Source of the DNA: a virus | Reading direction: 5' to 3' (one strand) | Length of the DNA stretch: 51,506 nt | Virus genome (UHGV): UHGV-0335272 | Shown here: positions 51,310 through 51,506 of the stretch, piece after piece | Position numbering within the stretch: the stretch's first letter is position 1 | Layout of the letters: every line of letters begins with the position of its first letter | The notes under the pieces: generated by a model | Told to the model about the DNA's origin: nothing | The model's database searches: none | What the model saw: only the letters and a program-made list of their open reading frames with translations | Translations under genes and position numbers: made by a program

Positions 51310-51367
51310 CATATAGGCACTGCCGGGGCTCATCACACAATTACTACCAAATGATGAGCCTCGGAAT

Positions 51368-51506
51368 GTACTGACCCCAAAAAGTTGGACAGTTAAACAC
51401 GAGGCACATAGGTCTGGGTTCGATATTCAATTGGACTCAGACCTTTTAATTTCAGGCTAATTCTTCTGCTGTTGTAGTAGTCAATATATTCCGTAACAGC
51501 ATCCTT
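51368..51506 (-). mobile_element. IS3-family insertion sequence, terminal fragment (continues beyond window end)
   Basis: Terminal TGTACTGACCCCAAAAAGTTGGAC-like inverted repeat; minus-strand frame reads a transposase C-terminus. Confidence 0.55.
51393..51506 (-). CDS. IS3-family transposase (OrfB) C-terminal fragment
   Basis: Manual translation [37 protein letters not shown], typical integrase-core tail of IS3-family transposases. Confidence 0.5.

Follow-up and report, generated by a model that had tools for sequence, protein, structure and literature searches.

Late gene expression in phage lambda is controlled by the Q/pR'/tR' switch, in which the late promoter is located within about 80 bp after the Q gene. 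In lambdoid phages, the late genes are transcribed from a promoter of their own and not by read-through from Q, and Q is a diffusible protein that acts in trans. For lambda Q a partial cis preference has reportedly been observed, and added distance could somewhat lower late expression.

Insertion of an IS3-family element into the late-side region of lambdoid prophages is known from IS629 in the Stx2a-converting prophages of E. coli O157:H7. For stx2a phages carrying IS629, induced cultures supplied the DNA from which the genomes were closed (PMC4587872), and induction is thus not necessarily blocked by an IS in this region. The hok/sok loci of E. coli and K. pneumoniae are likewise reported to be hotspots for the insertion of mobile elements (bioRxiv 10.1101/527788). 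ISKpn8, which belongs to the IS150 group of the IS3 family, is a described and very common element; related IS copies are present in 2,840 of 5,426 complete E. coli genomes, and the occurrence of IS copies in prophages is routine.

Here, the virus genome UHGV-0335272 is analysed as a single stretch of 51,506 nucleotides (the window), at the end of which an ISKpn8 copy lies behind a Q-like gene. The best explanation overall is a simple insertion of ISKpn8 between Q and a cargo segment, which would have spared the late switch, with the contig broken within the repeat; a probability of about 0.78 is assigned to this reading. The insertion resembles the IS629 case in the family of the element and in its late-side location, but it differs in IS, host, and position. 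Whereas IS629 interrupts a phage ORF downstream of stx2, the element in the window lies in the non-coding spacer between Q and the cargo, upstream of the putative late promoter.

Two prophages in the window

The window contains a Mu-like prophage followed by a lambdoid prophage (Table 1). The Mu-like prophage sits in pepT, of which the first ~300 bp are displaced, E. coli pepT being matched only from about position 32784 onward. The product of the truncated gene had no match in a public collection. The truncated pepT is followed by roxA, phoQ, and phoP, and the lambdoid prophage is integrated next to phoP of an Enterobacter-type host. Each of the prophages has its own DNA methyltransferase, which is a D12-class N6-adenine methylase in the Mu-like prophage (23082-23852) and a C5 cytosine methylase of 495 aa in the lambdoid prophage (48874-50361), the latter encoded just upstream of the RusA-Q gene pair.

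Table 1. Positions of the features discussed, in the window and in related loci
Feature	Sequence	Position	Strand	Remarks
Mu-like transposable prophage	window	1 to about 32780		late genes on the minus strand (1-22700), divergent from the early genes
Mu-like repressor gene	window	24464-24874		early gene
Mu-like transposase gene	window	26415-28184		early gene; further early genes encode a B-like ATPase, GemA, and Mor
Lambdoid prophage, integrase gene	window	37180-38469		followed by repressor, cro-like, CII-like, and replication genes, C5 methyltransferase, RusA, Q-like
Q-like, putative late-gene antiterminator gene	window	50707-51309	+	intact, 200 aa; stop TGA 51307-51309; start overlaps the RusA stop (ATGA)
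Spacer from Q stop to IS	window	51310-51366	+	57 bp, non-coding; identical to L002 10604-10660; Q-proximal edge of the cargo segment
Hairpin in the spacer	window	51323-51364	+	13-bp stem, 16-nt loop; ends 2 nt before the insertion point; no U-tract
Target site	window	51358-51366	+	GCCTCG (51358-51363) and GAA (51364-51366); GAA is the predicted 3-bp target-site duplication
Right end of ISKpn8 (IS3 family, IS150 group)	window	51367-51506	-	first 140 of 1,443 bp; transposase on the minus strand
Right terminal inverted repeat TGTACTGACCCCAAAAAGTTGGAC	window	51367-51390	+	18/24 positions match the left end of complete copies
Transposase (orfB part)	window	51393-51506	-	translation of the last 37 codons and stop; stop codon 51395-51393
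Terminator-like hairpin within the IS	window	51410-51444	+	from a consensus scan alone: 15 pairs, then TTTTAATTT; faces transcripts leaving Q
Left end of ISKpn8	outside the window			would read ...CCAACAAAATGGGTGCAGTACA
Cargo segment	L002	10604-12036		beyond the window end; encodes proteins of 82 aa and 276 aa
Putative late module	L002	12037-12260		nhmmer profile, E 1.6e-74
Module, -35	L002	12075-12080		
Module, -10	L002	12097-12102		
Module, terminator	L002	12169-12189		
Putative late module	L024	3610-3830		
Putative late module	Chris1 (L122)	3105-3329		
Putative late module	ZF40 (L123)	3114-3333		

The IS element and its insertion site

The last 140 nt of the window are the right end of ISKpn8. 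Complete copies annotated as ISKpn8 (RefSeq 'IS3-like element ISKpn8 family transposase', 1,443 bp) are identical to it at 140 of 140 positions, whereas copies annotated as IS150 have an identity of about 92-93%. The visible part shares the terminal repeat, the C-terminus of the transposase, and the insertion-site pattern with ISKpn8 and IS150, and these 140 of 1,443 bp show no difference from ISKpn8. The first bases of the element are TGTACTGACCCC, the visible end thus beginning with TGTACTG. In complete copies, the terminal repeats, TGTACTGACCCCAAAAAGTTGGAC and, at the opposite end, TGTACTGCACCCATTTTGTTGGAC, are imperfect, and the agreement at 18 of 24 positions is read from these reference copies. 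The 24-nt repeat occurs once within the window, where no occurrence is expected by chance, and a search for a second IS end throughout the window found none. A possible outward promoter at the left end of the IS (TTGACA-17-TTTCAT) was spotted by eye; it was not flagged by the promoter scan and is not relied on.

The minus strand encodes the 37-aa C-terminus of the transposase between positions 51506 and 51396. This fragment aligns with positions 342-369 of 369, i.e. the last 28, of the NCBIfam model NF033516 (transpos_IS3) with an E-value of 2.3e-6, the match falling far short of the cut-off for full-length proteins, and PF13333 (rve_2) is on record for an identical fragment. In the complete reference copies of ISKpn8 the transposase is annotated with a programmed frameshift, while only the last 37 codons are present in the window. 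The first-pass annotation had described an IS3-family element with a minus-strand transposase C-terminus about 60 bp after the stop codon of the Q-like gene. The identity with ISKpn8, the terminal repeat, and the transposase fragment bear this out, and the distance is now measured as 57 bp, the IS starting at 51367 and position 51310 being merely the first base after Q.

The site before the insertion can be read from L002, a public contig with an uninterrupted prophage that encodes an identical Q protein. Positions 40707-51366 of the window correspond to positions 1-10660 of L002 with 2 mismatches (99.98% over 10,660 bp), both of which fall outside called genes. This similarity stops at 51366, and the comparison with the uninterrupted homologous prophage therefore fixes the insertion point to the base, between 51366 and 51367 in the window and between 10660 and 10661 in L002. 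On the left of this point the empty site in L002 reads ...GAGCCTCGGAA and on the right CGAATTC..., or CGAATTCACC in a longer downstream reading; with wider flanks, the two sides read ...GATGAGCCTCGGAA and CGAATTCACCTGC..., respectively.

The spacer in front of the element had no match in an Rfam search, and a megablast search of positions 49500-51506 against a phage collection gave none either. The hairpin within it has a predicted RNA folding energy of -22.6 kcal/mol (z -5.57), and none of 200 shuffled sequences folds as well. As a candidate for a conserved RNA structure it was rejected, the pairing being lost in the diverged relative L023.

Insertion sites of other copies were compared using the flanks in E. 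coli chromosomes and plasmids, in viral contigs, and in contigs that end in the same IS fragment. At most of the independent enterobacterial sites of ISKpn8/IS150 copies examined, the sequence GCCYCR and a duplication of 3 bp, sometimes 4 bp, adjoin the right terminal repeat. The duplications seen at these other copies are CTT, GGT, CAG, GGA, CAT, and TGGG, and the pattern was found at the loci L124, L126, L127, L132-L134, L136, L139, L144, L147, L156-L158, and L163. The GCCYC(R) target often coincides with the foot or the loop of a stem-loop, and hok/sok loci are very frequent among the sites. At these loci, IS150-group insertions likewise adjoin a stem with GCCTC, and this has the same orientation with respect to the right terminal repeat as in the window; however, the site in the window is not a hok locus, as judged from the lack of an Rfam or Pfam signal, and its GCCTC lies in the 3' arm of the upstream hairpin.

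With GCCTCG followed by GAA, the site in the window fits the pattern of the other copies, so that an ordinary transposition with duplication of GAA is to be expected. A simple insertion predicts that the left end of the IS would be followed by GAA-CGAATTCACCTGC..., equally GAA-CGAATTCACCTGCAAAAATAAATG..., and onward by the cargo genes.

An alternative is that the IS marks the breakpoint of a rearrangement, in which the cargo and the late region were lost or moved by an IS-mediated deletion, an inversion, or recombination of IS copies with one another, so that the prophage ends at Q. Such events do occur with this element: one E. coli copy (L001) has no matching duplication, and its flank is rearranged. 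The window itself shows just 140 nt of the IS. In addition, neither junction was retrieved from public contig collections: the Q-side junction and the far junction as predicted (IS left end followed by 0-8 nt and CGAATTCACC...) had 0 matches in genome, viral, and metagenome contigs. On the Q side, however, the IS terminus is precise and adjoins a target site of the usual pattern, as in simple transposition, and the left arm and the intact twin differ at just 2 bases in 10.7 kb, as would be expected if the event were recent. A later deletion from the other end of the IS may still have followed; overall, a rearrangement is regarded as unlikely.

The position at which the window stops has a technical explanation. 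A public collection has the identical 37-aa fragment of the transposase in 272 blocks, and among the matches listed (10 of 272 blocks) every contig stops at 141 nt within the same element, with MEGAHIT-style 'k141_' names in nine of the ten. Since the window stops 140 nt into the IS, its end is probably the point at which a short-read assembly with k=141 broke off within a multicopy repeat, and not a biological boundary. The same observations could be taken to mean that the junction itself is an assembly artefact, or that it represents a minority of a mixed population in which most cells are uninterrupted, because a contig end exactly k-1 = 140 nt into a multicopy repeat is typical of de Bruijn assemblies. 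This is highly improbable, as a reach of 140 nt into the repeat at k=141 demands reads spanning the junction between flank and IS, and an exact IS terminus together with a pattern-fitting target site would be unexpected for a chimeric join.

The Q-like gene and the putative late module of its relatives

The gene upstream of the insertion encodes a protein that is assigned to PHROG 753 ('anti-termination protein Q-like') with an E-value of 3.7e-65 over residues 17-199, the label being an annotation. Neither Pfam-A nor NCBIfam contains a matching family, and a comparison with PDB sequences gave no match below E = 1; accordingly, no sequence similarity to the Q proteins of lambda, 21, or 82 was detected in Pfam and PDB, which sets this Q-like protein apart from the lambda switch. 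All public names for the family read 'hypothetical protein'. The predicted structure is a mediocre model with a mean pLDDT of 61.7, and its Foldseek hits to Q21 are all non-significant. The gene is found at the usual position of Q, at the end of the early-right operon in the order RusA-Q, and in relatives it precedes a promoter-leader-terminator module of the type Q proteins act on. The protein is identical to that of uninterrupted prophages, 23 similar places being grouped with the listed uninterrupted one. Based on the PHROG label, synteny, and the fold match from the mediocre model, the assignment of the 200-aa protein as Q-like with putative antitermination activity is well supported but not proven.

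A TTGACA motif overlapping the stop codon of the Q-like gene (51305-51310) was considered as a late promoter and rejected. It has no acceptable -10 element at 16-18 bp, is not conserved in relatives, and is not flagged by the promoter scan, and it probably represents a chance match.

For a comparison of the late modules, 98 loci encoding relatives of the Q-like protein were collected. The module starts no more than 13 bp from the Q stop codon in 79 of these loci and is displaced from Q by inserts of 0.42-1.44 kb in 14. It consists of a palindrome (TTAGCAAAAAGTGCTA), the -35 element TTGAAA, a 16-bp spacer (ACGGGCCAGAAAATCA), the -10 element GATAAT, a leader (CATGCTTGGCAGAGCTGCGCCACGATGGCAGCGA), and an intrinsic terminator (AAACCCCGCC..CGGGGTTTTTTGTT). 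The conserved leader contains a small hairpin, and the module is followed by a long conserved inverted repeat (CGGCGATACGACAGGGGTA...TACCCCTGTCATATCGCCG). Searches of the late leader and of the whole module against Rfam gave no match. In the phages Chris1 and ZF40 the module lies directly after the Q-like gene, and the source of the ZF40 record is given as 'induced lysogen'. The order of TTGAAA-16-GATAAT promoter, terminator, and genes for holin, endolysin, and spanin is found in the relatives and in the twin L002, where terminase genes are also located downstream, while the genome in the window stops inside the IS. Conservation, promoter consensus, and position together point to the module as a putative late promoter and terminator.

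In the lineage of L002, which includes the window, the module is located 1.43 kb downstream of Q, behind a segment with two cargo genes. This 1.43-kb insert is shared by L002, L023, and L054. It separates the lineage from the lambda arrangement with its promoter near Q. The proteins of 82 aa and 276 aa encoded by the segment had no significant match in Pfam and no match in PADLOC, and the cargo leader had none in Rfam. The segment has conserved promoter-like elements of its own, TTGCNN-18-TATKKT and an extended -10 element (TGCTAGAAT). In other phages, the same pair of genes adjoins an integrase gene, so that the cargo segment behaves as a movable unit. Inserts between Q and the module recur in the family and have sizes of about 0.42, 0.88, 1.2, or 1.43 kb (L002, L003, L009, L014, L069); the one in L003 encodes a Phd/Doc-like toxin-antitoxin pair.

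Consequences for late gene expression

The site directly behind Q had been interpreted in the first-pass annotation as the place of the late promoter and the Q-utilisation site, so that the IS would probably separate Q from the lysis and structural genes and may leave a prophage defective in late gene expression. This expectation was reasonable, because in the relatives with an adjoining module position +57 falls between the -35 and the -10 element. It thus describes most relatives correctly (79 of 98) but not the lineage of the window. In the coordinates of the twin L002, 1,414 bp separate the insertion point, at the margin of the cargo next to Q, from the -35 hexamer downstream, and the 57-bp spacer contains no promoter-like element of the module family. 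Furthermore, separation of Q from the module appears to be tolerated in the family, as the 14 relatives with displaced modules naturally carry 0.42-1.44 kb at this place. The cis preference of lambda Q and the terminator-like hairpin in the IS, which faces Q, would still speak for a loss of the late switch. The late genes of lambdoid phages, however, do not depend on read-through from Q, and a late-gene-defective prophage is considered quite unlikely.

The insertion is thus predicted to disrupt no gene and no recognisable late control element. With about 1.41 kb lying between the insertion point and the late promoter, neither Q nor the promoter, the terminator, or the lysis genes would be touched. 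As Q is diffusible and the late genes have their own promoter, late expression is probably retained, and the separation from Q, for which a defect had been suggested, is not by itself expected to abolish late transcription.

According to the proposed course of events, ISKpn8 inserted at the edge of the cargo segment that faces Q, and the Q protein would still reach its promoter in trans. Only small effects would be expected. The distance between Q and promoter would be about doubled, read-through from the early operon into the cargo genes may be lost at the terminator-like hairpin of the IS facing Q, and the genome would be ~3.5% longer in relation to the predicted twin prophage of 40.7 kb. 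The transposase gene is oriented opposite to the phage genes, and antisense transcription toward Q may be a further minor effect.

A more far-reaching idea is that IS150-group elements may recognise GCCYCR at the foot of a stem-loop, which could be the feature that makes hok/sok loci hotspots, and that they would accordingly land with preference at the hairpin behind Q. If this Q acted best in cis like lambda Q, the added 1.44 kb and the inward-facing terminator-like hairpin could damp the activation of the late genes, and the insertion would represent a recurrent, selectable taming of the prophage instead of a neutral accident. This proposal is speculative and very unlikely to hold as a whole.

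With the simple insertion of ISKpn8 as the preferred reading, the finding is mainly a correction: an IS next to Q is not to be read as a destroyed late switch. Inducibility of the prophage cannot be judged from this junction, since the late promoter would lie 1.4 kb farther on, behind the cargo genes. The insertion in itself, as a routine event involving a known element, matters little. As by-products, the analysis provides specialists with a clear sequence pattern at the insertion sites of IS150-group elements, and it points to an uncharacterised Q-like protein family with a possibly lambda-Q-like fold, as suggested by the structure model, a highly conserved promoter-terminator module, and a recurrent cargo slot.
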